IMG/VR virus record: IMGVR_UViG_2522572160_000003
Source of the DNA: a virus
Lineage: Duplodnaviria > Caudoviricetes
DNA length: 64,000 nt
Direction: 5' to 3' (one strand)
The position numbers and the translations under genes were made by a program. The notes under the pieces are model-generated. The model was not told the origin of the DNA. It did no database searches and saw only the letters and a program-made list of their open reading frames with translations. Positions 5,996 through 58,373 of this stretch are shown piece by piece; position 1 is the first letter of the stretch, and every line of letters starts with the position of its first letter.

Positions 5996-6277
5996 TTACC
6001 CATTTATTTTCTCCCTCAACTTCGCTGAACACTGAAAAGCCACCACCCGTCTGGACCTCAAAGTCAGATCTTCTCCAGTGGCCGGATTTCTTCCTCTGCG
6101 TTCATCCTTCGCTTTCACAGAAAATTTTCCAAAGCCGGAAATCAAGAGATCATTACCAGATCCCAGGTCTTCCTTGATGATCTCCAACAGGGTTTCCATG
6201 ATTTCTCCACCCCTGCGTTTGGGGTAGCCCGTCTCTTTGATTATAGCTTCAATGATTTCGTTTTTGGTCAGTGTCAT
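5996..6277 (-). CDS. ihfA: Integration host factor alpha-like (HU/IHF family) protein
   Basis: MTLTK...ISGFGKF...RRGRNPATG...RRVVAF signature. Confidence 0.9.
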   Translation of the reverse strand: MTLTKNEIIEAIIKETGYPKRRGGEIMETLLEIIKEDLGSGNDLLISGFGKFSVKAKDERRGRNPATGEDLTLRSRRVVAFQCSAKLREKING

Positions 6278-6779
6278 GTTTTTCCTTTATTTTCAATTGC
6301 ATGCCTGCAAAAATTTCTTTAGAAGACAGCAAACCGTTTTCTGTCTTTCTAACTCCCTCGTTTAATCTCTCAGCTACCTCCATGGGCGACAGATCATTAT
6401 AGGTCAAATTGATTTTAGCATCTTCCACCAGTCTGTTAACGAAGGCGGTCACAGATTTATTTAAAGCCTTGGAAGAATAAAATATGCCCATGGCTGGCCC
6501 AACGATGCGGTCATATATCAACTGGATTCCGTCGTACTTCATGGTGTCTCTTAGGAAACTGGGCCAGTATCGCATGAACTCTGAGAAGTCGGTTATACCC
6601 CTTCCATACATAACGGTTGAATATAGGGACATCGTATTGACCATTATGATGTACTGGGTTCGTTCAGCCGTGAAGAGATGCCCTGTCCAGTCCAAATATG
6701 GATTTGGGTCGGCTGGCAAAGACTTTGTGGGAAACTCTTTGAGCTTTTTCCCAAGTTTGGCGGAGTAGCGGAGTATCAT
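6249..6779 (-). CDS. Hypothetical protein (DUF6933-like)
   Basis: MILRYSAKLGKKLK...WTGHLF...YIIMVN..SLYS pattern recalled for this family; overlaps the ihf start. ORF track start 6803. Confidence 0.6.
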   Translation of the reverse strand: MILRYSAKLGKKLKEFPTKSLPADPNPYLDWTGHLFTAERTQYIIMVNTMSLYSTVMYGRGITDFSEFMRYWPSFLRDTMKYDGIQLIYDRIVGPAMGIFYSSKALNKSVTAFVNRLVEDAKINLTYNDLSPMEVAERLNEGVRKTENGLLSSKEIFAGMQLKIKEKHDTDQKRNH

Positions 6780-6893
6780 AATAGGGCAGGCCTCTAATCT
6801 CAAAAAATAATTGAATTTATCAGATAAGTATCATACCTAATAACCGACTTCAATATTCATATTGGGGATGATTCTTCAGCGTGGAGAAAATTA

Positions 6894-7235
6894 ATGAGAG
6901 CCATTAATCGATCAGCCGTCATAGTGAAACCCAAAGAGCCTTTTTTGAAGTGGCTCAATGATCTCTATCCGGAAGAAACGTATTCTCTGGAAGATATCCG
7001 ACATGAATGCACTGTCTTCCTGATTCCCGAGTGCGACGTGGTTGAGGAAGCACAAAAATTTATCAAGAGAAATTTCAAGGCCATTTTTCGGCTTGAACTT
7101 GAAGGTTGGCATACAGATCCCCAAAATTTTCCTGGAAAGCTGACCTACAAAATGTTCTGTGAATGGTTCGAGTGTGAGATCAACTCCGAAGTTTACGATC
7201 TATCAGCGAAAAAGATCACAGTTGAAGACGCATAG
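6894..7235 (+). CDS. Conserved hypothetical protein
   Basis: GGAG RBS; INRSAVIVKPKEPFLKWL...FLIPE...F..EL.GW...F.EWF is a recurrent small bacterial family. Confidence 0.8.
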   Translation: MRAINRSAVIVKPKEPFLKWLNDLYPEETYSLEDIRHECTVFLIPECDVVEEAQKFIKRNFKAIFRLELEGWHTDPQNFPGKLTYKMFCEWFECEINSEVYDLSAKKITVEDA

Positions 7236-7314
7236 AGAGCCCTTCTCATTTTTGTATATGAACGGGCTCGCCCCAAAAAAATCATTCTCCTCTTCCCTGA
7301 TGTCGAAGGGAGTT

Positions 7315-7499
7315 GATCTGGTTCATTTGACATGAGTAGGCAGACTGAAAGCATAGTTAGTAGAAAGAGATGAATGTCACAGTTATTCCGATTCATCTAC
7401 TCTTATACAAAGCACTATGTATACACAATGCTATAAATATCTCTCTCTTTGTTTGTAAATCCCTATTATATTGCCAAAAAAATAATTTTGTGGTCTATA
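7315..7499 (+). repeat. Direct repeat copy 1 (185 bp), paired with 19304-19468
   Basis: gatctggttcatttgacat...gatgaatgtcacagttatt...tacaaagcactatgtatacacaatgctat...aaaaaaataattttgtggtctata is near-identical to copy 2, with an extra 20 bp. Confidence 0.95.
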
Positions 7500-7562
7500 C
7501 CCCAAGGTCTATAGAGGAATCAAAAATGCAAAAAGAACTCAACCATCGCCTTCCAGCACTGT

Positions 7563-8312
7563 TTAGGCTTTATTACGTCTTTTTTGCGGCAAATCTTTAT
7601 GAAGTTTTTTAATTTTAAGTAGCTCCTGAAATACAAAAATTGACTTTCCGAGGCTGTCATAAACAATCCTTGAATCGCCTACGAAAGTCCAGCTGACAGG
7701 AAACTGACAAATACTATAACCTTTTTGTTTGGCCATCCAAAGAATTTCAGGATCAAAAATAACACTATATAATTTTTGATTTGAAAATAAATCCATTGCG
7801 GCCGCCCTTGTGAACATCTTAAAACCACATTGTGTGTCAGGGATATTTAGTCCTAAATAACAATTCTGTATAGTTCTGTATAGTTTGGATGAAAGCCTTC
7901 TAAAGAAACTTTGAGACGCACTAATTTTTGATCCGGGTATTGCTCTTGATGCGATGGCAATGTCACACGTATCATTTAGCAATTTTTCTGCTTTGACAAT
8001 TTCTTCGATGGCCACAGAATAATCGGCATCCATAAAGAGAACCCGGCCCCCGGAAGCTCGAACCATTCCGTAAGCTACTGCATATCCCTTTCCTCGGTTA
8101 GGCTTATATGAAAGAATTTTTAGGGACATATTATGAATATCCTGAAAAAGTTTCTCAGAAACAGCAATTGTGTTATCGGTAGAACCATCATCCACTATAA
8201 TCACTTCGACAAACTCTTCTCGCATTGAGAAAAAATTAATTGTATTCGATAGAGTCTTTACTATACGGTTTTCTTCATTATAAGCAGGAATAACTATCGA
8301 CAAGTTTATCAT
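7563..8312 (-). CDS. GT2 glycosyltransferase (dolichyl/polyprenyl-phosphate glycosyltransferase-like)
   Basis: LSIVIPAYNEE, VDDGSTD, NRGKGYAV, FMDAD and DTQCGFK motifs; ATG 8312 has a GAGAGG RBS. Confidence 0.92.
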   Translation of the reverse strand: MINLSIVIPAYNEENRIVKTLSNTINFFSMREEFVEVIIVDDGSTDNTIAVSEKLFQDIHNMSLKILSYKPNRGKGYAVAYGMVRASGGRVLFMDADYSVAIEEIVKAEKLLNDTCDIAIASRAIPGSKISASQSFFRRLSSKLYRTIQNCYLGLNIPDTQCGFKMFTRAAAMDLFSNQKLYSVIFDPEILWMAKQKGYSICQFPVSWTFVGDSRIVYDSLGKSIFVFQELLKIKKLHKDLPQKRRNKA

Positions 8313-8855
8313 GATATTCCTCTCATCATTTGGTATCAATATTTTTGAGCAGTTTTCTCACGCATCAAACTATCGAGTTTCATAGTACCTTAAAATTAAA
8401 ATAAAATGAAAGGATAATCACCAACATGTTTAGTACCAATCCCAAAACGCTTCGTTGGGGAGTCTATTCAAAGTTTTGATCGAGTTTCAATACACCAACA
8501 ATGACATTTATGAGCCCGATACATAGAACCTATCTCAGTGTTTTGATCTATAAATGCGTCCATACCCAAAAAACTACATTGCCTATATTAGCCGCCTCGC
8601 AAAATAATCGCCGCTTTCTGTTCAGGAGCCAAAGCCATCTTTTAAACGCGAGACATGTTTGCTGGATTCCCAGGACCCTGCCAAAGTGAATTCTTCCTGC
8701 TCCTCGACACTGACCATATGCCGTTCCCTCAAATTTGGAAAAAACACGTAGAATTATATAACTATCCAAAAATTATGAATATTATTCAAATGACTTGGAC
8801 GCAAAAATATTACGGCCGTTTTAACAAACGGCACTGCTCCTTCCGATTGCGTTGG

Positions 8856-10166
8856 TTATTCACAAAAAATCCGTTGGTAGCAATACCATTCTCCATTATG
8901 TTTCATTTGCTCCTTTAACTGCTTGAGGACATCCTCGGAGGCATTTATTTGACCATAATCAATATTTTGAATAGGACAGGACCCGATGCATTTCTTTTCC
9001 GTATAATATTGACAGGTTAAACATTCCTTGGATTTGTAGGCCGGGTCTCGAAAAATTGTCCACGCTTTATCATCGTGCCAAATTTTTAAAAAGTCGTTGA
9101 CGCAATCTATTGAAAACTTTCCGGCCATAAAGGGATTACGAATGTTGGGGTCAGCATCCAAATCGCTGGCCGGAGAATAGGAGCACCCGTACATGAGAAA
9201 TTGTTTATTCTTTGCATCATAATCCAAATTCGTCGCCTCGCGCCCAGCCGCACAGGCGGAGAGCTTTTTCACCACGGGATCATTGTAAAAGTGCTCTCCA
9301 AAATCCGTCGTCAATGTGGTTGTCATGCGGATTTTCAATTTTTTCATTACCCGAACCATTTCGCCAATGGCCCATTTAAATTCCGCAGAACTCATGATCT
9401 CGTTTTTTATCGACAAATTGCGAACTTGAGGCCTTAATGGAATGAAAGTTATGCTTTCCGCTCCCAGTTCTTTGACTATTCGGCCCAAGGGCTCAATTTG
9501 ATTCATGTTCGCCCGGGTTAAGACGGTCGTTAAGCGCAGCCTCATCTCAGGATTTACGGACCGAAGAAGGCGAAGGTTCCTGATTATGGTATTAAAGGTT
9601 GACGGACGATACTTATTATGAGCTTCTTCATCTCCATCCAAGGAGCAAATGGTCCAACAATTTCTATTCGCAATTTCCATCAATTTCTGTTCAGGCATCA
9701 CGCCATTGGTGGCGACCGAAACATAAACCCCCTGCTCCTGAAAGGCATCCAGGATGCGAAAAAAATCAGGATGCGTGGTGGGCTCGCCCCCGGTCAAACG
9801 CACTTCCACCAATCCATTTTGACCTAAAAATGAAGCCATTTCCAAAACGGCCTGTGTGGGGACGTGAGCAAGTCCGATTTCGGACTTAATAAAGCAATAG
9901 GAGCATTTAAGGTTGCAATTGCGGGTAATCTGAAAATAGACTCTTCTTGGAAACCGGGTATGGTTTTTGCGGGTTTTACCGATGAATACGGAATCGCCTT
10001 CCGTTGTTTCAACACGGGTTATAAATTCTCCGTTTTCATACGCTGTTGTTCCACCTAATAATGATTTAACAAATTCCTCCTTATCAATGGCCGAGAGGCG
10101 CCCTGTGGCGCTGTCAAAGCGAGAAAACTCCCCGAACTCCGGATCTTCCTGATATAACCGATACAT
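8856..10166 (-). CDS. Radical SAM/SPASM domain protein
   Basis: CNLKCSYC, LTGGEP, ATNG; C-terminal CAAG...CLTC...CIGSCP...YC. Confidence 0.92.
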   Translation of the reverse strand: MYRLYQEDPEFGEFSRFDSATGRLSAIDKEEFVKSLLGGTTAYENGEFITRVETTEGDSVFIGKTRKNHTRFPRRVYFQITRNCNLKCSYCFIKSEIGLAHVPTQAVLEMASFLGQNGLVEVRLTGGEPTTHPDFFRILDAFQEQGVYVSVATNGVMPEQKLMEIANRNCWTICSLDGDEEAHNKYRPSTFNTIIRNLRLLRSVNPEMRLRLTTVLTRANMNQIEPLGRIVKELGAESITFIPLRPQVRNLSIKNEIMSSAEFKWAIGEMVRVMKKLKIRMTTTLTTDFGEHFYNDPVVKKLSACAAGREATNLDYDAKNKQFLMYGCSYSPASDLDADPNIRNPFMAGKFSIDCVNDFLKIWHDDKAWTIFRDPAYKSKECLTCQYYTEKKCIGSCPIQNIDYGQINASEDVLKQLKEQMKHNGEWYCYQRIFCE

Positions 10167-10183
10167 GCGATCGCCTCTATGTT

Positions 10184-11176
10184 TTAAAGAGTCGTTTGTC
10201 TAAGTTGATGTTCGCTGGTTTGCCGTTGCCCGTTAAGAGGTTGGCGATTCGAGCAGTTGAGGCAGGGCAGAGCCTCGGCCTGGGCAAAACCCGAGTAGTC
10301 GTTTAGAAGCTCCGCCTTACGAAGTGCACGATATTTCTCATTATGCCAGATCTCGGATATGGAGTGCTTTTTGACATCTCCCATGACCACGCCGGGGTGA
10401 AGAGATTCTTTAAACAGTTCATTAAAGCAAACAACGGCGTCACCGGTTATGCCTATGTTAAACCTTGCCCAGTGCACCAGGCAAGGTTGATGTTCCAAGC
10501 TGCCGGAGCCGCTATTGCACAGTTTTGGAATGCAATCGTTATATGTGTGGTAAGAGCGGATAAAGGCGTCATGCACCAAGCCGCTGGACTTCCAGAATGA
10601 AACGAATGCTTCATCCAACACAGGGTCTTGCGATTGAACCCGGCTGACGATAAGCCTGTTGGATCCCCGTTTTGAAATCCGCTTGTGAATATATCCGATG
10701 TTTTCACAAACCAGCTCAAAAGCGTCAATTCCCTTGGTTTCCAGATAATTCCCGGAATCAATGCTATTGACGGAAACTTCGACTATACTGGCGTAATCGC
10801 AAATGGCGTCCAGATAATCCCTCCTATTGGTGACGCCGCAAGTGAACAACCAAGGCCGGGCGTTATTTTTGTGCGCAATTTGAAGAGCTTCCGGCAACCC
10901 GGGCCACAAGACCGGTTCCCCCACCGAATGAATGCGCAAACTGGCCCAGTCATGACACCCTGTTTCAGCAGCTATTTTTTCAAATAGGCCCAGGTCAATC
11001 GCCCTTGCGCCGAAACGCATTGTCCGGTTTTCGGCCGGGGTGCTTCCCACCGGGCAGTGGGAGCAGTTGCATGGACAGGCTCCCCGGAAAACCTCAACAT
11101 TGACAATATTGGGAAATATATGAGTCTGCTTTGTTGGAAAGCCTAAACACTTCCATTGCTCCTGCGTGTCTTTCAT
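10184..11176 (-). CDS. Radical SAM protein with SPASM/twitch domain
   Basis: CPCNCSHC, SVGEP; PC...G....CF...CLNC twitch pattern. Start moved to ATG 11176 (GGAGAGG RBS), which avoids overlap with the upstream gene. Confidence 0.88.
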   Translation of the reverse strand: MKDTQEQWKCLGFPTKQTHIFPNIVNVEVFRGACPCNCSHCPVGSTPAENRTMRFGARAIDLGLFEKIAAETGCHDWASLRIHSVGEPVLWPGLPEALQIAHKNNARPWLFTCGVTNRRDYLDAICDYASIVEVSVNSIDSGNYLETKGIDAFELVCENIGYIHKRISKRGSNRLIVSRVQSQDPVLDEAFVSFWKSSGLVHDAFIRSYHTYNDCIPKLCNSGSGSLEHQPCLVHWARFNIGITGDAVVCFNELFKESLHPGVVMGDVKKHSISEIWHNEKYRALRKAELLNDYSGFAQAEALPCLNCSNRQPLNGQRQTSEHQLRQTTL

Positions 11177-11225
11177 TTTAAGCCTCTCCACCATATGAAA
11201 CAGATATGCCGATTCAGATAAAAAT

Positions 11226-13208
11226 TTAGGGTGCGCTTTTGGGAAATGAGTAAAAACCGTTTTCGGAGCGAACCTCGGCGTTCTCGTAGGGTGCGTTTCT
11301 CTCGTGATTTCCGATAAGCAACTTGCCGTTACTATCACCTATAGACAACCAGCCGCTTCTTTGACCTATAACTTGCGTCTTCCGGTCAGATGGAAAGCAG
11401 CGGAAGCCTTTCCGCTTTCCCTTGAAATATGAGTCGACCTTATGGGCAAACCAGGCTCTGTAACCAAGACACTCCTCACCGAACTCGCTTAACAGAGCCA
11501 GCTTACAAGATTCTATTTCTTTAACGCATGAAAAAACGCCTCTTGCGCCGAGATGTGTTTTATAAAGTCCCGAGTCGCGCAGCTCCTGGCGTTTAAGACT
11601 GCCGACATGCAGCACCATGACTGCAGGCTCAAGTTGCTTAAATACGCCCCCAAGACTCTGGCTCACCACCTTTCCGGAAGAATCTTTAGAAGAATCATAC
11701 CACCCGGTGTCTGACGTTATTCCAATATCAGGATAGCCGCGCGGAAACCTAAATACCAATCCGACGCCGTCTCCAAACCCATGCTTATCGCCATGCTTGG
11801 TTAACGTGGCAAATATATCTAGTTTACCGCCTTTTGAGTGAATAGTATGCTTGCGGCCCATTTCCTCATCCACATCCGTCAACGGTTGTATTCTGCCATA
11901 GTATGAAAAGTCCACAATGGACCGGGCATACATGTCAAAAACACCCTGGCTTAAATAAAAATCAACCTTATTGTCGGATCCTTTTAGCGTTTTATATAAA
12001 AGATTCAGCAAGGGGCCAAAAGTGGCGACGTGATCATAATGATCATGGGTGACTATTATTTGGGTGATCTGCGAGGGGTGCAATCCGGATTCATAAAAAT
12101 GCTTGATGAAATCAAATCCTGGATCAATGACTATGCCCAAATCCTTCCACTGCAAAAAATAACCGCCGCCCCCTCCTTGATTTTGCTTGATTGTTTCAGG
12201 GAGTAAAGGCGTGTAAGACCCCCAATCCCGCAGGACAAAAAATTTCCATTCATTCGGCGTTTTTATATTTTTTGAATTGGGTTTTGATTTGGCGTTTATG
12301 GCAGCATTAAACTGTTTGTCAGCCTTTTCTATTGCTTGTATGTTTTCCAAATAATCATGGGCGTCCTCGCCGGCAACAAAAAATAGCCAATCACGGCTAT
12401 CTTTTAACTGTTGTATAACCCTTTCGATCGCCCCAAGTTTAGGGTAAGTACCTTCTTCATGTATGCTATTTCTTAATAATAACGAATTCGGATGGAGCGT
12501 CCCATCAAGTTCATTTTGAAGAAGATCCTGAATCCACTCGGCAAGTATGTATATGGATGTATATTCAATTTTACTTGGTATACTTGCATCTGCTTTCGAG
12601 TTGTCATTTTTCTTTGATTTGTTATTATTGTATTTATTTATAGCATTTTTTGCAAAATCAGATCTTTCTTTTATACGACCACGGAGAGTAACTATCAAAT
12701 CTTTGCCGCCCTTAGAGCGCCACGCGCCCCATTTGCTGCTTATCTGGAATTTTGAAGATTCTTCCTTATTTTTTAGTGAGGGTTCCTCACTATTTATTTG
12801 TGAAGTTTTTTCAACATAATCTAATACTTGTCTAACCAATTCGGCCCACTCTGCATGCACGACGGCTGCAAAAAAAAGGAGATTCTCATCCTCGACCTCT
12901 GCGTAATTCGGAGAGCCTTCGAGGTTTCCAAATTGGCTCCAAACGCTTAGCCAAAAGAACTCGTCGGCCAACCCAAAGGTTTGGATAAAATCCTTTACAA
13001 TGTCCCCATTATGATTTTTTTCCCTGAGGGCTGTTTGAATCGCCTCATTTATTAGCTTTTCCCCCCTGAGCTTTAATGTGTAGGCGATCCCGTAATAAAC
13101 AAGTCCGTTGTTTTCTGGCTCTTTATCCAGGATGATGTTTAGAATGGTTTCCGCAAGTTCAGCTGGATTTCGCTCTGCATCCAGAACTTTAATCAACTCA
13201 TTAATCAT
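11226..13208 (-). CDS. MBL-fold metallo-hydrolase with helical N-terminal region
   Basis: GGGYFL...IVIDPG...THDHYDH (HxHxDH), TKHGD, TSDT and LHVG motifs. Confidence 0.88.
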   Translation of the reverse strand: MINELIKVLDAERNPAELAETILNIILDKEPENNGLVYYGIAYTLKLRGEKLINEAIQTALREKNHNGDIVKDFIQTFGLADEFFWLSVWSQFGNLEGSPNYAEVEDENLLFFAAVVHAEWAELVRQVLDYVEKTSQINSEEPSLKNKEESSKFQISSKWGAWRSKGGKDLIVTLRGRIKERSDFAKNAINKYNNNKSKKNDNSKADASIPSKIEYTSIYILAEWIQDLLQNELDGTLHPNSLLLRNSIHEEGTYPKLGAIERVIQQLKDSRDWLFFVAGEDAHDYLENIQAIEKADKQFNAAINAKSKPNSKNIKTPNEWKFFVLRDWGSYTPLLPETIKQNQGGGGGYFLQWKDLGIVIDPGFDFIKHFYESGLHPSQITQIIVTHDHYDHVATFGPLLNLLYKTLKGSDNKVDFYLSQGVFDMYARSIVDFSYYGRIQPLTDVDEEMGRKHTIHSKGGKLDIFATLTKHGDKHGFGDGVGLVFRFPRGYPDIGITSDTGWYDSSKDSSGKVVSQSLGGVFKQLEPAVMVLHVGSLKRQELRDSGLYKTHLGARGVFSCVKEIESCKLALLSEFGEECLGYRAWFAHKVDSYFKGKRKGFRCFPSDRKTQVIGQRSGWLSIGDSNGKLLIGNHERNAPYENAEVRSENGFYSFPKSAP

Positions 13209-13329
13209 GCCCCCTCCCCCTTAAACAATTCTACAAAGATTACGGAATCAAAACTTGTTTGAACGCAAACTTGGCATCAAGTCCGAATCGCATTGTCTTA
13301 CTTGTAAACGGCTCAACATGAGGCTCTTG

Positions 13330-14601
13330 TCACATTAATTCGGAGCCCTTTCCCAAAGCAAAGGAGCCTTGCGAATTTGGGTTATCGAAAAAAGCGGCAT
13401 TTCGCACACAATAAGGATCCGTCCCTTCCAGGCTTCCGGTAATTGCATAAGCCGATACAGGGCAGCCTCCATTGCAGCGGCGAATATAAAACAGACAATT
13501 CTTGCAGCCATCATGACTAAGAGCCCTTGCCTTTAAAAACAATTGCGATTCATGCCATAATTTCAATATGTCTGATTTGGAACCATCAGAATTGATCCAA
13601 TAGTCATGGTCGAGACCGGAAAGATAGTTGCACAGCGTAATCCTGCCGTCAGACAGGATTCCAAAACCCATTCCTCCTAAAGCGCAACTGGAGTTATCAA
13701 AAGGAAAAGGCTTGCTTCCCGGGTTGAACTCATTTTCGCAGAATACATCGTAATTGACTCTTATTCGGCCTCCCATCAAGCCGAACTCTTTTCGCAGTTG
13801 ATTTATCCAGCGCGCCGCCTCCAGAACCTCCATGGGGCTTAGCATTTGCTTATGGTCTGCACGCCCGACGGGTCTAAGCAGGCCGATGCTCAGACTGCAT
13901 TCCAACTGAGCAGCCAACTCGACCATATGCTCCAGGCAATGCTGATTGGCTTTCATCAGGACCATGTTTATGGTGATGTGCTCGGGATGAGAAGACTTGC
14001 AGCCAGTCAAGATTTTCAGCGCAGAGACGATTTTTTGATATGCACCTTTTCCTCTTATATTGTCATTGGCGCTTTCATCGCCGTCCAAGCTGACTCTAAT
14101 GTCATTAACGCCCAAGTCAACTGCTTTCACAAGAATTTCCATGGAGGAAAGCCCGTTGGTATTTAATGACGGTATCATGCCCTGGCCAACAATCACTTTA
14201 ACAATATCGAGGAAGTCTTCACGGACAGTAGGCTCTCCGCCGGTCAGGCGAATATAGTAGGTCCCCAGGGAGGCAAGGTTTTGAAGCATTTTGGAAAGCT
14301 CGGAAAACGACATCTCCTCCGCTTTGTCCGGTTGGGAAAACTTGGCGTAGCAATGCGCGCACGACAATTGGCAGCGCTTGGTCAATTCAAGGAAAATTTT
14401 CCCCGGAGTTGCAAGAGCGTTTGAAGGCAAAGGATATCCTATCTGTTCCACATTGATCTTTCTGACGCATTTTCCGTTGAGAGCCATGTCGTCAAAATTA
14501 TCGGAGGCAGCGGCATATTGATTTTTATCCAGCATTTCAATCTTCTGAGCGATAGTATCAATAATAATCCCGCCAAAATGCTCTTTTCGGAGAATATGCA
14601 T
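13330..14601 (-). CDS. Radical SAM/SPASM domain protein
   Basis: CQLSCAHC, LTGGEP, NTNG, VSLDG; full SPASM C...C...CKNC...CNGGC...DPYC. Confidence 0.93.
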   Translation of the reverse strand: MHILRKEHFGGIIIDTIAQKIEMLDKNQYAAASDNFDDMALNGKCVRKINVEQIGYPLPSNALATPGKIFLELTKRCQLSCAHCYAKFSQPDKAEEMSFSELSKMLQNLASLGTYYIRLTGGEPTVREDFLDIVKVIVGQGMIPSLNTNGLSSMEILVKAVDLGVNDIRVSLDGDESANDNIRGKGAYQKIVSALKILTGCKSSHPEHITINMVLMKANQHCLEHMVELAAQLECSLSIGLLRPVGRADHKQMLSPMEVLEAARWINQLRKEFGLMGGRIRVNYDVFCENEFNPGSKPFPFDNSSCALGGMGFGILSDGRITLCNYLSGLDHDYWINSDGSKSDILKLWHESQLFLKARALSHDGCKNCLFYIRRCNGGCPVSAYAITGSLEGTDPYCVRNAAFFDNPNSQGSFALGKGSELM

Positions 14602-14710
14602 AACCTCGATCCTTTACCCTAAAACGCCGTTTTCAAAAATCCTCATTGTATGACGCCATTTTTCAACCGGACAGCCCTTTTTTGCGCCGGCTTACCGCGG
14701 CGGTAATAAA

Positions 14711-15853
14711 TCAGACAAACCCTTTATGGTGCATGGGGCTTTTTAAATACTCAATGATTTCATTGTACTTGCTTAAAGGGTGCGTGCAATGTTTGGCGCA
14801 CGCGAACTTTTTAATCCGTGTTAGAATTTCTTGTCTTTCCTGTCCTTCAAGGATCATCTTGAGAGTTCTTCCCTGCTCATAATTGATCCGTCCAATGCGC
14901 CACTTTTGTATTGAACGAAGATTGCAGCAAGGATAAACGTCGCCTTCTGCTGTAATCACAGACAGCAAGGGAGAGGCCAGGCATCTTCCCGTGACGTGCT
15001 CAATGCCATTTGCATTTTTCATAATATAGGAGCCTCGCCTGGGAGAATTTCCTTTATAAGCGTTTAAATATTTTGCATCCTGATCTGATATCCAGTGATC
15101 AACCAGAATCTTCATGTCGCCAGTGTACCCATTGGCGGCGTCGACGAACTGTTTGCGCAATTTGAACGATTCCAGGGGACTGTTTGTGGCCTGGGCGCCG
15201 ACCTCTTCAAAAAATGGGGGGCGAAAAAGAATGTAATCGGACTTTACCTGCTCGCCAAGTTTTAACGCCGCATCCACTAAATCGATCATCCCAAAATCCA
15301 TTGCAAACGATAAACCGACAATGGGATGCCTTTGATTGGATTTATTTCTAATCTCAAGTAATTTTTTCGCGCCTCCTACAACGTGCTCAAAATCGTCTGA
15401 GCCATGAACATATCGGTGGGACGACGGCGTGGGACCATCTATGCTGACCCTGACATAGTCGGCGTAAGACGCCAATACGTCCGCAATTCCGTTTATCCTG
15501 GAACCGTTTGTTACAACTCCCACTTCGAACTTGCATTTTGATGCAGTTTCCAATAAACGAGAGAACTCTGGATGCAAAGTCGGCTCTCCGCCTCCTTTGA
15601 ACACCACACCGGCAACGCCAATTTCCTCAAATTCGCCAAAGAGCCGCTCCGCAAAGTTTAGAGAAATGCAGCTTTGCCCGTGATACGGATCAACGCACCA
15701 ACGGCATTTATGATTGCAATAATTAACAGGATCAAGCTCGACCGTAACTGGAAAAATATCCTGGCCAGCGGCAAGCGCTTCTAGCTTGGGAAGAATCGAG
15801 ACAAACTTATATGGATTCAACTCGATATCTGTAATTGAACTTCCAAACTGCAT
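14711..15853 (-). CDS. Radical SAM protein with SPASM/twitch domain
   Basis: CNHKCRWC, GGGEPTLHP, VTNG; C...GDVYPCC...C...C. Confidence 0.93.
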   Translation of the reverse strand: MQFGSSITDIELNPYKFVSILPKLEALAAGQDIFPVTVELDPVNYCNHKCRWCVDPYHGQSCISLNFAERLFGEFEEIGVAGVVFKGGGEPTLHPEFSRLLETASKCKFEVGVVTNGSRINGIADVLASYADYVRVSIDGPTPSSHRYVHGSDDFEHVVGGAKKLLEIRNKSNQRHPIVGLSFAMDFGMIDLVDAALKLGEQVKSDYILFRPPFFEEVGAQATNSPLESFKLRKQFVDAANGYTGDMKILVDHWISDQDAKYLNAYKGNSPRRGSYIMKNANGIEHVTGRCLASPLLSVITAEGDVYPCCNLRSIQKWRIGRINYEQGRTLKMILEGQERQEILTRIKKFACAKHCTHPLSKYNEIIEYLKSPMHHKGFV

Positions 15854-15865
15854 GCCGACAACCCT

Positions 15866-17170
15866 CTACTTTGCGATTTTGCTATTTATGCTATCAATTA
15901 CTCCACCATTACGTAGGATTTGCTCCGCCCGAGTCCTCCATCTTTTTACATCATTTACTCCAAAATTTTTATGCTCCAAAGCAAAACAAGACCGGCCGTT
16001 CACTCCAATCTGGACATAATCTCTAAAGTTCCGATTAATAATTTTGTATCCAAAGGAGGTCGGGCGCTTTGCGATTTCTGTGCCGGGGTAAGGAATCAAA
16101 GGATAGACCGAAAACTCGCTAAGACCAAGGTTGGTTGCTTTTAAAAAGTACTCATCAATATTTTGATCATTATCATACGGAAGTCCTACCATAAAAAAAG
16201 AACGGACCACAATGTCGGCTTCAGCGGCGTACTGCACCCGCCACTCTTGCCCAATTTGTCCTCCCTTATTGAGAATTTTTAAATTCTGAGGATTTAATGA
16301 TTCAAGGCCTACAGACATATGCACGCATCCGGCCCGCTTCAAAGAAAGGCAGTTTTTTTCCGTCAGGTGGCTCACTCGACCGAAAATCCGAAAAGAAATA
16401 TCCAACCCTGTTAATCTATCCAATACTTCATCCAAATTAGGATGTTCTGTGAAACAATCATCATTAAAACGGAAGAACCTGCATTGATCCCTAAGAGCCT
16501 CAACTTCTTTCGCAATGCTTAGCGGGCTTCTAAAAGCTACCCGCCTTGCCCCGCCCCCCATTACCACACTATTACAAAAGGCGCATCTGTGCGGACAACC
16601 GCGAGAAGCAAGGAGAGATATAACGCTTTCATTAAGAAGTTTTCGCGAATATCCACTATTGTTCACAAGATCTCGTGCAGGAAATGAAAGGGTGTCAATA
16701 TCTTCAACATGAGTCCCTTGTAGTACGCCAGCCTTGGGAGTTCCATCAATATAACTATCCAAACAACTGATCATGGCATTTTCGCCTTCTCCAACCACAA
16801 CTAAATCAACTCCTAAATCGTGTAGAGTTAGCTCAGGAAGAGCTGATGGGTTTGCTCCTCCCACGACAATATAAGAAGATGACCACGTATTGCGAATCCA
16901 ATCCACAATATGCTTAGCATATTCATGCGTTGTACAGTGGATACCGATGCCATAAACGTCTGCCTTGGGAATACTTTCTATTTTTTTATCAATATCTTGC
17001 CTATCGCTACATCCCGACATATCAAAAACGCCAATTTGTTTGAACCCCGCATCCCTAACAGCAGCTGCAATATATAGTAATCCTAAGGGGGGCTCTAAAT
17101 GGTCGTCATTTACGCATAATGATGGCGGATTAATTAACACAACAGTAAGTGTTTCTCGCGATAAAGACAT
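15866..17170 (-). CDS. Cobalamin-binding radical SAM protein (class B methyltransferase-like)
   Basis: VVLINPP...PPLGLLYIAA, VVGG, GEGE B12-binding domain; ASRGCPHRCAFC; GLES; PYPGT. Confidence 0.93.
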   Translation of the reverse strand: MSLSRETLTVVLINPPSLCVNDDHLEPPLGLLYIAAAVRDAGFKQIGVFDMSGCSDRQDIDKKIESIPKADVYGIGIHCTTHEYAKHIVDWIRNTWSSSYIVVGGANPSALPELTLHDLGVDLVVVGEGENAMISCLDSYIDGTPKAGVLQGTHVEDIDTLSFPARDLVNNSGYSRKLLNESVISLLASRGCPHRCAFCNSVVMGGGARRVAFRSPLSIAKEVEALRDQCRFFRFNDDCFTEHPNLDEVLDRLTGLDISFRIFGRVSHLTEKNCLSLKRAGCVHMSVGLESLNPQNLKILNKGGQIGQEWRVQYAAEADIVVRSFFMVGLPYDNDQNIDEYFLKATNLGLSEFSVYPLIPYPGTEIAKRPTSFGYKIINRNFRDYVQIGVNGRSCFALEHKNFGVNDVKRWRTRAEQILRNGGVIDSINSKIAK

Positions 17171-17210
17171 AAGTTATTTCCGATTGGTTCATTTTAAACG
17201 TATGAAATAA

Positions 17211-17238
17211 ATCATACTCCATAGGAATCTTTTGTCAA
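17211..17238 (-). promoter_or_regulatory. Putative sigma70 promoter of the radical SAM operon
   Basis: Minus strand TTGACA-16 nt-TATGAT, ~40 bp upstream of the 17170 start. Confidence 0.6.
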
Positions 17239-17263
17239 ACAATTACTTTGAACAATTACTTTG
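17238..17263. repeat. 13-bp tandem duplication (aacaattactttg x2)
   Basis: Read directly; abuts the -35 box. Confidence 0.85.
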
Positions 17264-17492
17264 AATTGTGTCATCATGCAGATTCAATTATTTCGGAGGC
17301 TTTGAAAAAGGCGATTTTCAGACGATTGAAATGAATGGGAAGGATAGGGTTTCCAATAATCAGTAAAAAAAATTAGCGGAACTGATTCTCCACATTAACC
17401 AACAGCTTGAAAAAACTCACCCCCCAGCGAGAAGAACGCACCTTAAATTGATCCTATCAGCGTTTACATACAACCCATCGACTGAACCGCAT

Positions 17493-17569: not shown

Positions 17570-18049
17570 CTATTTCTTGGGAGTCTTCTTATCAGTCGCC
17601 TTTTTATTCTTCCTTGCAGCAACCAACTTATCGGCCAAGCCTTTTTCTTTGGCTACCTTGGCGCGATCCGCAGAAAGAGACTTGCAAGATAGAGGCTGAC
17701 GCTTCTTCATACCGTATTTGGCCCGGTACTCATTAGCCGTCATACCATGCTGTTCCAGGTGTTTATTAGTCAGCATTTTGAACTCAGCCCCGCACTCAAG
17801 ACAGACCACAGACTTTTGGCGAATGGACCGTAAAGGAGCCTCCCTCAGTTTTAGCAGTTTCTCAGGAACTTCTTCAGCCGGTTCCGTTTCAACTTCGGGT
17901 GTTTCTCCCGCTTCCTCCATTGCTTTGATGGAGGCCAATGTTTGATATGCCTTGGTTAAGGCCTCTGCCATTTCTTCTGGGGTCATTTTGGCATGGGAAG
18001 CCTGGGCGGTAACCATTTCAGCGGCGAGTTCATAAAGTGATCTGGACAT
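17570..18049 (-). CDS. Ros/MucR family zinc-finger regulator
   Basis: SIRQKSVVCLECGAEFKMLTNKHLEQHGMTANEYRAKYG...PL; AAGGAG RBS. Confidence 0.92.
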   Translation of the reverse strand: MSRSLYELAAEMVTAQASHAKMTPEEMAEALTKAYQTLASIKAMEEAGETPEVETEPAEEVPEKLLKLREAPLRSIRQKSVVCLECGAEFKMLTNKHLEQHGMTANEYRAKYGMKKRQPLSCKSLSADRAKVAKEKGLADKLVAARKNKKATDKKTPKK

Positions 18050-18062
18050 GGAAGGTCTCCTT

Positions 18063-19145
18063 TTAATTATCTGGGGTGGATGATTTGCTCTTCAATTCAT
18101 TATCTATCACACCTTTGGTCATGGAAACCAATTCTTTTATTGCAGCGACAATTATTGAAGGATCCAACGTCTTGGAAATTGGAGCCGTCAATCTACCTCG
18201 TTTACGAGAGTATTTGTCATCCCAGGAAATTTGATACTTCCCTTGTAGTAGAGTCCCATCAAATTTCTTTAGATGTTCCCCCAGAAACGCAACATCATCA
18301 GATTCAAGATGCAGATCCACTTTGATCATGTCATTTTGGAACAATAATTCATAATGAACTCCATCCGGCCAGTTGACCGGCTTTACCTTGCGATATGTTA
18401 TGCCTCCACCCAACAATGTCATGCCAGTGACGGGATGTTTTTCATAATATTCGATCACAGTTGCAAAATGGGGATCGATGGACTTCTTCGCCCGAGTGGT
18501 AATGCTTTTCTTCACTTCAACGCCGAAGATCTTGGGAATTACAATTTCATATTCTTCGTGTTTGTAAAATTTGAATTCCACCCCATAGATGCCGAACTGG
18601 CTGTTCTGATTGACATATAGAATCAAATCTTTTAGCCGGTCTCCAATGGAATCCATCAGGATAACAAACTTGATAACTCCAGCCTGGAGGTTCTGACTCA
18701 TCCGTTCAATGATGCTGTCTGTCTGGGCGAATTCAATTCCAAAGAAATCGGCGACTTTTTCTTGAAAGTCCATGCCATGGGTTTTCTGGGTTTCTCTATC
18801 AAGGACGCTTAGGAATTGGGCGAAATCGGTGGTATGTTTCCACAATGCGGCGCCATAATCCAGAGCCTGAGCGATGACCGTTCGTTTGTCTGGGTTCTTC
18901 CAAAGTTTGGTCTCAATTACGTAGAGATCACCATCTTCATCGATTCCTAAAGCATCTATGGGACCTGAATTTGTGGACAGTTCCCTAACAGCTACGTAGA
19001 GGCGCTTGTTTTCCTGCAACTCATAGACAGGGATGGATTCGGGATTTCGATGAATATACTCCTGTAGCGAGTCTTCATATTCAAAAGGCGACTGATTGAT
19101 GACCTGGGCGTTTTGCCCGTGTTTGGAAATAATTATCGGCATCAT
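18063..19145 (-). CDS. PD-(D/E)XK endonuclease (NucS-like N-terminal domain)
   Basis: E..LQEYI..NP...REL.T..GPIDALGID.DG....IETK...R.VIAQALDY; AGGAG RBS before MMPII. Confidence 0.8.
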   Translation of the reverse strand: MMPIIISKHGQNAQVINQSPFEYEDSLQEYIHRNPESIPVYELQENKRLYVAVRELSTNSGPIDALGIDEDGDLYVIETKLWKNPDKRTVIAQALDYGAALWKHTTDFAQFLSVLDRETQKTHGMDFQEKVADFFGIEFAQTDSIIERMSQNLQAGVIKFVILMDSIGDRLKDLILYVNQNSQFGIYGVEFKFYKHEEYEIVIPKIFGVEVKKSITTRAKKSIDPHFATVIEYYEKHPVTGMTLLGGGITYRKVKPVNWPDGVHYELLFQNDMIKVDLHLESDDVAFLGEHLKKFDGTLLQGKYQISWDDKYSRKRGRLTAPISKTLDPSIIVAAIKELVSMTKGVIDNELKSKSSTPDN

Positions 19146-19303
19146 TGACTCCTGGCTATGTAGAGGAATTTTCAGTTTTGAAATATCATGAGACCGCAAT
19201 TGAAGCAAGTACGGTCCTCATCAATGGATCTTGAAAAAAATGAGCTTACCAGATCATCGTTTCATTAGACGATACAATTTTTAAAAAAGGGAGGTAGAAG
19301 ACA

Positions 19304-19468
19304 GATCTGGTTCATTTGACATAAGTAGGTAGACTGAGATGAATGTCACAGTTATTCAAATTCATATACTCATATACAAAGCACTATGTATACACAATGC
19401 TATTAATATCTCTCTCTTCCTTTGTAAATCCCTATTATATGGCCAAAAAAATAATTTTGTGGTCTATA
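19304..19468 (+). repeat. Direct repeat copy 2 (165 bp), paired with 7315-7499
   Basis: See copy 1; differs by scattered substitutions and a 20-bp indel. Confidence 0.95.
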
Positions 19469-19646
19469 TCCCGCCTCTACATCTCAAGGTCTACAATCGA
19501 AAGCCTACAGGCCTCTATTATCCAGGAATTAACTCGGCAGATAGCGACTTCTTCTGCGCCATCATCCCGCCCGGTAGATCATTTTTTATATAGAAATTTT
19601 TTAAATGTAACCTTGCGGGCGTCTCCAGCCGGAAGGAGTTTCTATT

Positions 19647-55342: not shown

Positions 55343-55440
55343 CCGAACAATCCCTATTCCAATCACTCCGTCTTTCCCCTATTCCACTCATCCCGAGTGA
55401 ATCCGTGATCCCAAACAATTCAAACCAAAGGAGTTTGCCT

Positions 55441-56874
55441 ATGATCAAGGAGTATTTGAAGGCCGGATATCCGGCCATATGCCTGTTGACGCAGGAGCCG
55501 CACCGCGCAGAAGCGGTGTTGCCTTGCGAGGGCTGGAGATTCGTCTCCTGGGACTGCCTACAGGGCATCATTGACCTGGAAGCCAAAAAGGTCCTGGAAG
55601 AGATCATCGACCCTGTCGAAGCCATTCGCTGGCTCGACAACTTCGGCGACACCGTGCTCATCGCCCACAACCTGCACCTGTTTCTCGAAGCCCCGGAGGT
55701 CGCCCAGGCCATCCAGAACGGCATTATCCGATGGAAAAGCATCGGCAGTGCGCTGGTCATGGTTTCCCCGGTGATCCAAATGCGGCCGGAGATCGAAAAG
55801 TATTTCCATATCATCGATCTGGCCCTGCCTTCCGACGAAGACCTGTTCACAATCCAGATGGATTTCGCCAAGAAGCTCAACGTCAAACCCAACCGGAAGG
55901 CGGCCCGCGCCGCAAAAGGACTCACCGAATTCGAAACCGAAACAGCCTACGCCCTGTCCCTTGTGAAAAAGGGCTACTTTTCCACCCGGGTCGTCACTGA
56001 GAACAAGGCTCAGATGATCCGCAAATCCGGCCTCATGGAGTTCTGGCAACCCGCAGACATTCAGGACGTGGGAGGATTGGACGCACTCAAATCGTTCATC
56101 GCCAACCGCATTCGAGCCTACGAATCGGACGGCGAATCCCTCCCCCGCCCCAAAGGAATATTGCTCTGCGGAGTTCCAGGGACTGGAAAATCTTTAACCT
56201 CCAAGGCAGTGGCATCATTGCTCAACTGGCCTCTCATCAAACTGGACATCGGCGCGTTGAAAAACTCTCTCGTAGGAGAATCCGAGCGCCGCATGCGCCA
56301 GGCAACCCAGGTGATCGACGCTTTCGGCGAAGCCATTATCTGGCTCGACGAGTGCGAAAAAATGTTCGCCGGGACCAAATCAAGCGGAGAAACCGACGCA
56401 GGCACAACCGCCGGAATGTTCAGCCATTTCTTAAACTGGATGGCCGAAACCAATAATTCCGTATTGGTCATGTGCACTGCAAACAACATCTCCCAACTGC
56501 CGCCCGAGTTTCTGCGAGCCGGTCGATTCGACGCAACCTTCTTCGTGGATCTTCCCACCAAGGCGGAGCGCATCGAAATCATCAAAATCATGAACCGCAA
56601 GTATAAAACCGACATCCCCCTATCATGGGCGGACCGGTTGACCGGGTTCACCGGCGCGGAAATCGAGCAACTGGCTAAAGACAGCCTGTTCGACGGCATA
56701 GACGAAGCATTTCAAAACCTGGTTCCCATATCCCGGTCCATGCGCGAAGAAATCAACGCGCTCAGGGATTGGGCCAAGAACCGGGCTCGACTGGCGAACA
56801 CGCCTGACAACCTCGAAACCGGTCAACGCAAACTGCGCACCGTTAAGAAGAAAGGAGGTGACACCAAGCATTGA
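55441..56874 (+). CDS. AAA+ ATPase, Ycf46-like
   Basis: DVGGL..LK, PRPKGILL.GVPGTGKS, VGESE, WLDECEK, TANNI..LPPEFLRAGRFD; AAGGAG RBS before ATG 55441. Confidence 0.9.
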   Translation: MIKEYLKAGYPAICLLTQEPHRAEAVLPCEGWRFVSWDCLQGIIDLEAKKVLEEIIDPVEAIRWLDNFGDTVLIAHNLHLFLEAPEVAQAIQNGIIRWKSIGSALVMVSPVIQMRPEIEKYFHIIDLALPSDEDLFTIQMDFAKKLNVKPNRKAARAAKGLTEFETETAYALSLVKKGYFSTRVVTENKAQMIRKSGLMEFWQPADIQDVGGLDALKSFIANRIRAYESDGESLPRPKGILLCGVPGTGKSLTSKAVASLLNWPLIKLDIGALKNSLVGESERRMRQATQVIDAFGEAIIWLDECEKMFAGTKSSGETDAGTTAGMFSHFLNWMAETNNSVLVMCTANNISQLPPEFLRAGRFDATFFVDLPTKAERIEIIKIMNRKYKTDIPLSWADRLTGFTGAEIEQLAKDSLFDGIDEAFQNLVPISRSMREEINALRDWAKNRARLANTPDNLETGQRKLRTVKKKGGDTKH

Positions 56875-57290
56875 GCCACATTTCCAAAATCGAGGTGAGG
56901 ATCGACTCCCTCGACGCTCTGAAGCTCGCCTGCCATAGGCTGGGGTTCCAGTTCAACCAAAACCAGACCACGTACAAATGGTTCGGTCGATGGGTTGGAG
57001 ACGAGCCCTTGCCCGAAGGCGTAAGCGAAGAAGAGCTTGGCAAATGCCATCACGCCATCATCGTGCCCGAATGCGAGTACGAAATCGGCGTGGTCAAACG
57101 CGAATCCCATTACATCCTGTTGTGGGATTCATGGTATCGAGGCGGCTTGAAAAAGAAGATCGGCAAAAACGCCGGCATTCTCAAACAAGCCTACTCCATC
57201 GAAAAGATCAGGGCTGAAGCCCGCAAACGATCCTACCGCATCACCGAAAAACGGACGCCCCAAGGCATCCGCCTGACTCTCACCTGCTGA
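56871..57290 (+). CDS. DUF1257 (Ycf35-like) protein
   Basis: MSHISKIEVRI..LDALK.AC..LG...YEIGV...Y.L.WD...LKQAY; TTG start coupled to the AAA stop, AAGGAGGT RBS. Confidence 0.82.
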   Translation: MSHISKIEVRIDSLDALKLACHRLGFQFNQNQTTYKWFGRWVGDEPLPEGVSEEELGKCHHAIIVPECEYEIGVVKRESHYILLWDSWYRGGLKKKIGKNAGILKQAYSIEKIRAEARKRSYRITEKRTPQGIRLTLTC

Positions 57291-57298
57291 GGACAATC

Positions 57299-57496
57299 AT
57301 GAAACAAATCATTTTGGACGTCTCCGACGACGGAGAGGTTCGCATTGAAACCCGAGGCTTTGCCGGAAAGGCTTGTCTGGAAGAGGCGCAGTTCATCAAG
57401 GATCTGCTGGGTAAGGAGCTTACCCGCAACCTGACTCCCGCCTATTACCAGGACGCCAAAAAGAAGGCGAAGCGCTACCTTAACCTTTGCGGATAG
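57299..57496 (+). CDS. DUF2997 protein
   Basis: I...DGEV.IET.GF.G.AC......LG......TP.YY. Confidence 0.82.
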   Translation: MKQIILDVSDDGEVRIETRGFAGKACLEEAQFIKDLLGKELTRNLTPAYYQDAKKKAKRYLNLCG

Positions 57497-57509
57497 AAAG
57501 GAAAACATT

Positions 57510-58373
57510 ATGGACGCCATTTTCAAGAAAGCATGTCTCGTACAATTCTCAGCCTCCGTGTGGCAGGGAACCCGCATGATCGATCCCGCCCTCATGGAAA
57601 GCCTGGGCCAGAACAGCGACTGGGTCAAAGCCCGCAAGAGGCTCATCAACCCCGAACTGTTAGGCCCCATCAAAACCGCCGTGCATCAGGCCCGAAACAA
57701 CATCCAGAAGCATGCATTGCCGTTTCCCATCACTGCGCTTTACCTGATTCCCAAGGAAAGCCTGACCATGATCGACGAAACCCTGCAGCAATTCAAGGAG
57801 CGTTTCTGGGCCAAGGTCAACGAGTTCGAGGCTCATTACGAAGAAGCCCGCGAGGAGGCGAAAGCCGTCCTGGGCGAATTGTGGAACGAAACCGACTACC
57901 CGAGCGACGTAACCGCCAAATTCAACTTTGAGTGGCGATTCCTCATCCTGGACGTCCCGAGCAAATCGAGCGTCCTGCCTCCCGAGGTATACGCCCGGGA
58001 AAAGGAGAAGTTCCAAAGCCTCATGGAAGAAACCCGTACTCTGGCCGCCGAAGCATTGGCCAAGGAGATGGGCGACATCGTCCATAATCTGTCGGAACGC
58101 TTATCCGGCGGCAACAAGACCTTGTCATCCAACATGCTGAACAAGCTCAAGGAGTTCCTGGACGCCTTTGAAACCAAGAACATCTTTGAAAACGAACGCC
58201 TGACGGAGCTGGTTACCCAAACCCGCGAGATCGTGGGCGGAGTCACTCCCTACGGACTTCGCTACAACGAATCCATCCGCCAGCGCATTTCAACTGACAT
58301 GGCCAACCTGAAATCCGCCATTGACGAAGCCATCGAAGACCTGCCCAGGCGCAAGCTCCGCCTGGCTGCGTAA
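57510..58373 (+). CDS. DUF3150-like protein
   Basis: LV...SVWQG...KRLI.P..L...LPF...LYLIP...YP...KF.F pattern; position in the module. Confidence 0.65.
   Translation: MDAIFKKACLVQFSASVWQGTRMIDPALMESLGQNSDWVKARKRLINPELLGPIKTAVHQARNNIQKHALPFPITALYLIPKESLTMIDETLQQFKERFWAKVNEFEAHYEEAREEAKAVLGELWNETDYPSDVTAKFNFEWRFLILDVPSKSSVLPPEVYAREKEKFQSLMEETRTLAAEALAKEMGDIVHNLSERLSGGNKTLSSNMLNKLKEFLDAFETKNIFENERLTELVTQTREIVGGVTPYGLRYNESIRQRISTDMANLKSAIDEAIEDLPRRKLRLAA

Follow-up and report, generated by a model that had tools for sequence, protein, structure and literature searches.

The window analyzed here, the whole 64,000-nucleotide stretch of IMG/VR record IMGVR_UViG_2522572160_000003, is the first 64 kb of contig C9 in the 6.47-Mb genome of a sulfate-reducing bacterium, Desulfatibacillum. 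On its minus strand, seven co-oriented open reading frames (ORFs) run from position 17170 down to 7563, and six of them form the cassette of radical S-adenosylmethionine (rSAM) enzymes that is the subject of this analysis. A first-pass annotation had described the seven as a series of five rSAM enzymes, a hydrolase of the metallo-beta-lactamase (MBL) fold and a family 2 glycosyltransferase (GT2); all seven lie at the positions stated there, and the C-terminal cysteine counts fit the order of twitch, SPASM, twitch and SPASM enzymes that it gave. The six genes from 17170 to 8856 are closely packed, separated in order by gaps of 12, 109, 121, ~30, and 17 nt, and encode a B12-binding rSAM enzyme, a twitch-like rSAM enzyme, a full-SPASM rSAM enzyme, the MBL hydrolase, and a second pair of twitch-like and full-SPASM rSAM enzymes. 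Catalytic motifs are intact in all six proteins, and no membrane segments were found in them or in the GT2. These six genes constitute one horizontally acquired operon of five rSAM enzymes and one dinuclear-metal MBL hydrolase. Genome-wide, Radical_SAM matches number 81 in 6.47 Mb, or about one per 80 kb, so that five within 8.3 kb reflect operon organization and not chance.

Gene 1 (15866..17170; like all genes of the run, on the minus strand) encodes 434 amino acids with B12-binding and Radical_SAM domains in Pfam and the motif CPHRCAFC at residue 192. Gene 2 (14711..15853), starting 12 nt past gene 1, encodes 380 amino acids matched by Radical_SAM and SPASM in Pfam, with a short SPASM/twitch-like tail that holds five C-terminal cysteines. 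The product of gene 3 (13330..14601; 423 amino acids; Radical_SAM in Pfam) has a full SPASM-type cysteine set and an N-terminal extension of ~65 residues. Gene 4 (11226..13208), which has a strong ribosome-binding site, encodes the 660-residue MBL protein, composed of a helical N-domain (residues ~1-300) and an MBL domain matched by Lactamase_B/Lactamase_B_2 in Pfam at residues 355-510. For gene 5 (ORF 10184-11338), the start lies most likely at 11194, giving a small rSAM enzyme of 336 amino acids (10184..11194), the same form as in the public record, with Radical_SAM and SPASM matches in Pfam and a BtrN-like twitch tail. Gene 6 (8856..10166) starts 17 nt past gene 5 and encodes 436 amino acids with a Radical_SAM match in Pfam, a seven-cysteine SPASM set, and a beta-rich N-domain at residues 1-62.

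Directly 5' of gene 1 lies the top sigma-70-like site of the 12-kb region (17211..17263, minus strand), which reads TTGACA-16-TATGAT and matches the consensus at 11 of 12 positions. Two exact tandem copies of CAAAGTAATTGTT occupy positions 17238-17263, in overlap with the -35 hexamer or immediately 5' of it, and this exact 13-mer was found nowhere else in the window. Together, the tandem pair and the promoter-like site are candidates for the operon's operator and promoter. At the other end, a terminator-like hairpin (8815..8832, minus strand) begins 24 nt past the stop of gene 6 and likely marks the end of the operon. A second terminator-like hairpin (17418-17438, minus strand), 3' of an upstream gene for a MucR-type regulator, sets that gene and its nuclease-like partner apart from the operon.

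No polyketide synthase, non-ribosomal peptide synthetase, transporter or protease was found within the block, and no credible precursor ORF in or beside the operon; the annotation's statement that the first three of these and a clear precursor gene are missing from the block was borne out. The gaps of 12-121 nt within the run are too small for a peptide gene. Two short ORFs were considered as precursors and rejected: a cysteine-rich ORF of 31-33 amino acids (8468-8569) has no ribosome-binding site and lies past the terminator-like hairpin, and the start of a 30-residue ORF (17130-17222) falls inside the -10 box.

The seventh ORF of the run (7563-8339, minus strand) encodes a soluble GT2 (Pfam GT2) similar to dolichyl- and undecaprenyl-phosphate hexose synthases, and its start is most likely the ATG near 8312 (7563..8312). 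It is set off from gene 6 by a gap of 540 nt that contains the hairpin, and with 35.9% GC it falls below the range of the six operon genes (42-49%). Its family is very large (69,410 representatives at E <=0.001, with source names such as 'dolichyl-phosphate beta-glucosyltransferase'), and none of the contigs listed for its top ten representative clusters match the contigs of gene-1, gene-6 or MBL homologs by exact size. The rSAM/MBL part of the annotated series thus stands, and the GT2 was rejected as a cassette member on base composition, the gap with its hairpin, and the unrelated contigs of its closest relatives; judged from the sequence, it is probably a separate transcription unit, a neighbor inside the same repeat bracket.

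All five rSAM enzymes matched Radical_SAM (PF04055) above the Pfam cut-off (33.6-72.9 bits against 29.5) and each contains one CX3CX2C motif. The product of gene 1 also matched B12-binding (PF02310) at residues 26-133 with 60.2 bits (cut-off 32.1) and by domain content belongs to the class B rSAM enzymes. C-terminal cysteines are few in the twitch-like products of genes 2 and 5 and form the full SPASM set in those of genes 3 and 6; in the gene-6 family the seven conserved cysteines are C305, C328, C382, C385, C393, C397, and C429, with equivalents in gene 3. The Pfam SPASM model matched genes 2 and 5 and gave no match to genes 3 and 6, despite their full cysteine set. Genes 3 and 6 are paralogs, sharing 26% identity over 399 amino acids.

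No NCBIfam model reached its cut-off for any protein of the set, and the distance of all matches from their cut-offs agrees with the view that the block is not a characterized pathway. The best model for gene 1 was the ladderane-associated B12 rSAM family (101 bits against a cut-off of 360), followed by BchE, HpnJ, and HpnR; gene 3 matched MftC (124 bits against 265) and AhbD (114 bits, full-length), and also NirJ and Tes. PqqE (104 bits against 381) and ScmF were likewise among the best matches below cut-off. Ladderane and hopanoid identities were rejected on these scores. In clusters for pyrroloquinoline quinone (PQQ), the rSAM enzyme PqqE is paired with the MBL-fold protein PqqB, and in mycofactocin clusters MftC is paired with the GT2 MftF. 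Mycofactocin was rejected because MftC and MftF (33 bits against 280) score far too low and no MftA, MftB, MftD or MftE partners occur in the block. A PQQ system was rejected on the PqqE score, the absence of PqqA, PqqC, and PqqD, and the nearest relatives of the MBL, which are ElaC and YhfI. Prokaryotic viperin (pVip) was rejected as well, since the NCBIfam model viperin_w_prok (281 positions) gave at most 62 bits against a cut-off of 180.

Among solved structures, the closest relative of gene 1 by sequence is AprD4 (86 bits), and that of gene 5 is the twitch domain of BtrN (31 bits). The gene-6 profile placed the cytosylglucuronate decarboxylase BlsE first (58.5 bits) and SuiB next (55.1 bits). 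AprD4 is a diol dehydratase with the same domain type, and for this reason cobalamin or methyl-transfer chemistry cannot be read from the gene-1 domain; the C-methylation that had been assigned to the B12-rSAM enzyme is thus not established. The gene-6 family has a mean column identity of 68% across phyla and both domains of life, and arginine accounts for 12 of its 98 invariant columns, which fits an anionic substrate. In its AlphaFold model (pLDDT 90), the N-domain at residues 1-62 folds into six strands and a single helix. As for gene 5, one cluster of similar fold carries a fused cytidylyltransferase domain.

The product of gene 4 carries the MBL ligand motif HDHYDH (H388-x-H390-x-D392-H393) together with H454/H472, D500, H534, and H552, which are invariant in a family of 13 members, as are many residues of the N-domain. 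These 13 homologs, at 36-49% identity, were all that was found among 5.8 billion clustered proteins. The structural model (pLDDT 72) comprises an all-helical N-domain of ~300 amino acids, the MBL domain, and a beta-rich C-terminal tail of ~60 amino acids. Residues ~320-600 are nearest to the phosphodiesterases ElaC, YhfI, RNase Z, Apyc1, and PhnP (Foldseek E 3e-10 to 1e-6, TM by target 0.6-0.8), with a Foldseek probability of 1.00 against 1zkp, 6kns, and 7u2r; sequence identity to structures of the ElaC/YhfI branch is 11-17%. PqqB is absent from the listed fold matches. Ligands and predicted fold thus point to an MBL-fold dinuclear metallohydrolase of the RNase Z/ElaC-like branch. The catalytic fold and metal motifs are those of the known phosphodiesterases, but gene 4 differs from them in its beta-rich tail and in its helical N-domain without detectable relative, for which no known match was obtained and a search of the ESM Atlas returned nothing.

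Searching genome contigs with the MBL alignment as a profile returned motif-level MBL matches in Bacteroidia and, from Eubacterium, a single distant relative of 496 amino acids with 28% identity. Of the MBL relatives found outside the phylum, this one is the nearest, and its gene belongs to a glycan locus together with LicD and at least five glycosyltransferases. A metagenome scan with the same alignment gave nothing relevant among the matches listed, and neither scan yielded a locus of the wider gene cluster to which the cassette belongs. In another Desulfobacterota genome, a stand-alone protein of 938 amino acids (8495-11311) fuses ~550 amino acids of tetratricopeptide repeats (TPR), including TPR-S sensor-type repeats, to an MBL module 37% identical to that of the window, and a DACNV/DAC-like gene follows ~4 kb downstream.

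Genes 1 and 6 each have more than 120 orthologs at 45-59% identity, which come from Patescibacteria, Nanoarchaeota, Woesearchaeota, Chloroflexota, Anaerolineales, Planctomycetota, Brocadiaceae, Thermoguttaceae, Nitrospirae, and Deltaproteobacteria. Co-location was assessed from identical longest-contig sizes (in bp) in the homolog lists and from the spacing of GenBank accessions. The lists of the 120 best homologs of genes 1 and 6 have at least 31 contigs in common by exact size (50-59% identity), and of contigs of at least 9 kb, each list has 52, of which 25 also stand in the other. Likewise, 9 of the 12 contigs with an MBL homolog carry an ortholog of gene 1 or gene 6. If accession numbers follow gene order, the spacing between genes 1 and 6 is seven in a Patescibacteria metagenome-assembled genome (MAG; two assemblies) and six in a Deltaproteobacteria MAG, against five here, and we infer that related clusters are about as large as this one, the conserved pair being separated by one or two genes more. 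The accessions run MBU2592009-MBU2592016, MFH1705374-MFH1705381, and MCP4368849-MCP4368855. In maximum-likelihood trees of the two proteins, the MBL-linked tips and the window copy fall into one clade (support 0.94 and 0.97; 22 and 20 of 120 tips). The homologs of gene 1, gene 6, and the MBL therefore do co-occur elsewhere; their never doing so had been named in the annotation as grounds for dropping the cluster.

The first and last genes of the operon are thus the conserved pair of a cluster that is widespread but patchy over bacterial and archaeal phyla, and the form with the MBL is one subclade of this cluster, of which the window holds a copy. The shared contigs, the accession spacing, and the supported subclade indicate that the cassette is a real, conserved, and horizontally mobile unit, a conclusion we hold with high confidence. 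Literature searches found no description of it. It is a genuinely conserved and uncharacterized cassette, although of a kind (the multi-rSAM tailoring cluster) that is already known.

Among viral contigs, neither the gene-1 protein as a single query nor the MBL alignment found a relative, and the gene-6 alignment found only generic rSAM enzymes; translated searches of plasmids and phages with genes 1 and 6 gave no match. A scan of viral contigs with the gene-1 alignment yielded one useful phage locus, IMG/VR UViG 3300020171_000755 (6000-15700). There, a gene-1 homolog with 43% identity stands beside a second B12-rSAM enzyme, three family 4 glycosyltransferases, a nucleoside diphosphate (NDP)-sugar epimerase/dehydratase, and a SAM methyltransferase. 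The same contig carries an SU10-type capsid and NUMOD3 endonucleases, and the locus looks like a phage-borne radical sugar-tailoring module.

The GC content of the Desulfatibacillum genome is 54.4%, and that of the first ~60 kb of the contig 38-45%. Searches of two congeners and of ~800 genomes sampled from the phylum or class (Desulfobacterota) turned up no ortholog of gene 1, gene 6 or the MBL. Low GC and absence from the sampled relatives mark the cassette as foreign in origin. Direct repeats bracket a 12-kb block that comprises the GT2 gene, the operon, the MucR gene, and a nuclease-fold gene. The left copy (7315..7503, plus strand) is an AT-rich, non-coding sequence of ~190 nt, and the right copy (19304..19472, plus strand) is 84-94% identical to it. 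Elsewhere in the genome, this repeat occurs only as partial copies, on contig C45. The repeat may mark the edges of a module or represent a regulatory region in repeated form.

We tentatively favor, at somewhat less than even confidence, a reading in which radical chemistry tailors a sugar or polyol in nucleotide-activated or phosphorylated form, or else a nucleotide. Because the operon holds tailoring enzymes only and occurs in minimal-genome members of the candidate phyla radiation (CPR) and DPANN of both domains, the substrate is expected to be a ready-made universal metabolite or macromolecule. The leaning toward a sugar or nucleotide follows from the phosphodiesterase type of the hydrolase, the sugar-acting sequence relatives of genes 1, 5, and 6, the glycan contexts of distant homologs, the arginine-rich gene 6, and the lack of a precursor. 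The product class proposed in the annotation (a modified sugar, nucleoside or peptide) is broad enough to cover both this reading and its closest rival, and the link to a lipid carrier that was added to it fell together with the GT2.

Under the sugar or nucleotide reading, no scaffold-building enzyme would be needed, as the cassette would act on a universal phosphate-bearing metabolite. The AprD4-like gene 1 and the two BtrN-like twitch enzymes could dehydrate, oxidize or C-alkylate the sugar by radical steps, and the two SPASM enzymes, rich in invariant arginines, might perform decarboxylation, epimerization or C-C bond formation. Phosphodiester hydrolysis by the ElaC/YhfI-type MBL, steered by its helical domain, may then release or trim the product, which would enter the glycan assembly of the host or serve as a free analog of a nucleoside or sugar. 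The closest precedents are the antibiotic rSAM enzymes AprD4, BtrN, BlsE, and GenK, which the cassette resembles in its B12-type gene 1 nearest to AprD4, its BtrN-like twitch gene 5, the BlsE-led profile of gene 6, and the clustering of radical steps. Unlike those pathways, it has no 2-deoxy-scyllo-inosose (2-DOI) synthase, aminotransferase or conserved glycosyltransferase, it embeds an MBL with a novel helical domain, and its hosts are CPR, DPANN, and other anaerobes instead of actinomycetes; the similarities, moreover, are remote (31-86 bits).

Several observations weigh against this reading. The cassette has no conserved partner among nucleotidyltransferases, NDP-sugar dehydratases or glycosyltransferases that would define its substrate. 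The phage (43%) and Eubacterium (28%) contexts belong to distant relatives that may differ in function. The extra one or two genes suggested for related clusters could encode precursor peptides. Sequence scores against solved sugar-acting and peptide-acting enzymes lie only a few bits apart, and the best solved relative of gene 3 is PqqE. The fold matches of the gene-6 model are led by SkfB (Z 27.9), SuiB (25.6), anSME (24.6), ChlB (23.8), and CteB (23.6), with BlsE and PqqE (21.2 each) after them, and the alignments with SkfB and SuiB (366 residues in the latter) extend over the N-domain to residue 1 of the model, against a beginning at ~72 for anSME.

The maturation of a peptide or protein is a possible, if less likely, alternative. 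According to it, the N-domains of the SPASM enzymes bind a peptide, the SPASM and twitch enzymes cross-link, epimerize or modify in some other way a protein or a ribosomally synthesized and post-translationally modified peptide (RiPP) encoded elsewhere, the B12 enzyme C-methylates it, and the MBL, through a helical, TPR-like domain, binds and processes it. Besides the maturases at the head of the gene-6 fold matches, the nearest relatives of gene 3 (PqqE at 72 bits among solved structures and, in NCBIfam, MftC below its cut-off) point in this direction, and so do the conserved N-terminal extensions of ~65 amino acids on both SPASM enzymes, the room for small precursors among the extra genes of related clusters, and the fusion of an MBL-module relative to TPR, a protein-binding fold. 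The resemblance to SuiB, SkfB, CteB, anSME, PqqE, and MftC covers the full seven-cysteine SPASM, the N-terminal extension, and the best fold matches (Z 24-28), but the cassette differs from these systems in having no precursor, no recognizable RiPP recognition element (RRE), no peptidase, and no equivalents of PqqC, MftD or MftE, and the GT2 is not conserved with it. No plausible precursor ORF, protease or exporter accompanies the operon. The PqqD/RRE model (PF05402) gave no Pfam match in 28 gene-6 orthologs at E up to 1, and the modeled N-domain, with its six strands and single helix, does not look like the three-strand, three-helix RRE; the alignments with SuiB and SkfB span this region. A mean column identity as high as that of the gene-6 family across phyla and domains would be unusual for RiPP maturases. 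Finally, full-SPASM enzymes match anSME, SuiB, and CteB best in any case because few non-peptide SPASM structures exist.

A role in defense against phages or in other conflicts, which the annotation had also offered, appears unlikely. It would have the cassette turn some widespread nucleotide into an analog that is toxic or terminates chains, in the manner of viperin or oxetanocin, or modify nucleic acid, with the MBL as a phosphodiesterase or nuclease effector under a helical sensor-like domain. The position in a low-GC island, flanked by a helicase/REase_MTES_1575 fusion, a PDC-S11-like nuclease-fold gene, and further orphan genes, is consistent with it, as are the patchy distribution over two domains at 50-59% identity, the absence from the congeners searched, the closeness of the MBL fold to Apyc1 and RNase Z, and the fusion of an MBL relative to TPR/TPR-S. 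In PADLOC, the rSAM cores matched pVip with at most 71.5 bits, in the N-terminal core only (~70 bits), and PDC-M51A with 31 bits. Yet these are matches to a generic rSAM core, far from family membership, and island location is weak evidence because biosynthetic cargo is also island-borne; the annotation's suggestion of a defensive role draws on this context and these matches and is not supported. No known defense system has five rSAM enzymes, and no recognizable sensor, abortive-infection effector or immunity gene is present. The chemistry, for its part, overlaps that of the sugar or nucleotide reading, from which only the biological role differs.

With OxsB/OxsA (oxetanocin) and viperin/pVip, the cassette has in common the general scheme in which an rSAM enzyme works on a nucleotide already at hand and is paired with a metal-dependent phosphohydrolase, as well as viperin/MoaA-like cores (Z ~19) and a mobile, island-borne distribution. 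Unlike them, it has five rSAM enzymes and not one, its hydrolase is of the MBL fold and not an HD-domain protein, and no family-level similarity was detected. It is quite improbable that this cross-domain cassette uses five rSAM steps and a metallo-phosphodiesterase to make a rearranged nucleotide or nucleotide-sugar analog for conflict, as an antiviral compound or an inter-microbial toxin. Such a product would represent a new and far more elaborate counterpart of viperin and oxetanocin chemistry.

The tailoring of a cofactor, tetrapyrrole or lipid, by steps like those of Ahb or NirJ, methylation of the hopanoid or ladderane type, or Tes-like lipid coupling, is the least probable of the alternatives: it would account for the best NCBIfam matches of gene 1 (the ladderane-associated family, then BchE, HpnJ, and HpnR), for the full-length AhbD match and the NirJ and Tes matches of gene 3, and for a fold match of gene 6 to GDGT-MAS (Z 20), but the scores are three- to six-fold under the family cut-offs, no tetrapyrrole, isoprenoid or fatty-acid genes lie nearby, the proteins have no membrane segments, and the cluster is found in CPR and DPANN and spans Archaea and Bacteria, two domains with different lipids. 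CPR and DPANN organisms largely lack lipid and tetrapyrrole synthesis.

The reactions of multi-rSAM cassettes at unactivated carbons are difficult to foresee, and the characterized cassettes are mostly those of actinomycete antibiotics or RiPPs. The cassette described here is compact, with six soluble enzymes and no scaffold genes. It is highly conserved over a range that takes in Desulfobacterota, CPR bacteria, and DPANN archaea, which implies that its substrate is universal and its product open to selection. Its copy in a cultivable genus (Desulfatibacillum) provides a practical entry point to the product of a family otherwise known from metagenomes, and finding this product would assign a first function to the rare MBL family with its new helical domain.

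The remaining features concern the surroundings of the operon. Inside the bracket and upstream of the operon lie a gene for a Ros/MucR regulator (17570-18049, minus strand) and, directly upstream of it, a gene for a nuclease-fold protein of 381 amino acids (18063-19208, minus strand) with weak similarity to NucS and to PDC-S11/PDC-S18 of PADLOC. The 90%-identity cluster of the MucR protein is named Desulfatibacillum alkenivorans; a genome of the same genus matches only the MucR, DUF6933, and 113-residue genes of the stretch and not the rSAM block, and MucR paralogs with ~80% nucleotide identity recur in a genome of that genus. The flanks hold the helicase/REase_MTES_1575 fusion, HU, DUF6933, and a DUF669-like gene. 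The bracketing repeat contains the palindrome AGCACTATGTATACACAATGCT. As a whole, the low-GC ~60 kb has the appearance of a large, mosaic foreign island with several unrelated cassettes.

Further tight multi-rSAM clusters occur in the same genome at C13:4269-34375, C3:314576-328171, C20:70950-75390, C26:69279-72652, and C16:133984-139640; those on C13 and C3, for example, hold five rSAM enzymes within ~14 kb each. At the 1e-80 level, these clusters are unrelated to the cassette. Toward the end of the window, positions 55400-62440 have a GC content of 54-55%, a strong excess of A over T, and many spurious antisense ORFs. The plus-strand genes of this segment encode an AAA ATPase, DUF3150, a PD-(D/E)XK (Cas4-like) nuclease, and a UvrD helicase, and the whole resembles a repair or mobile-element module of ordinary type.

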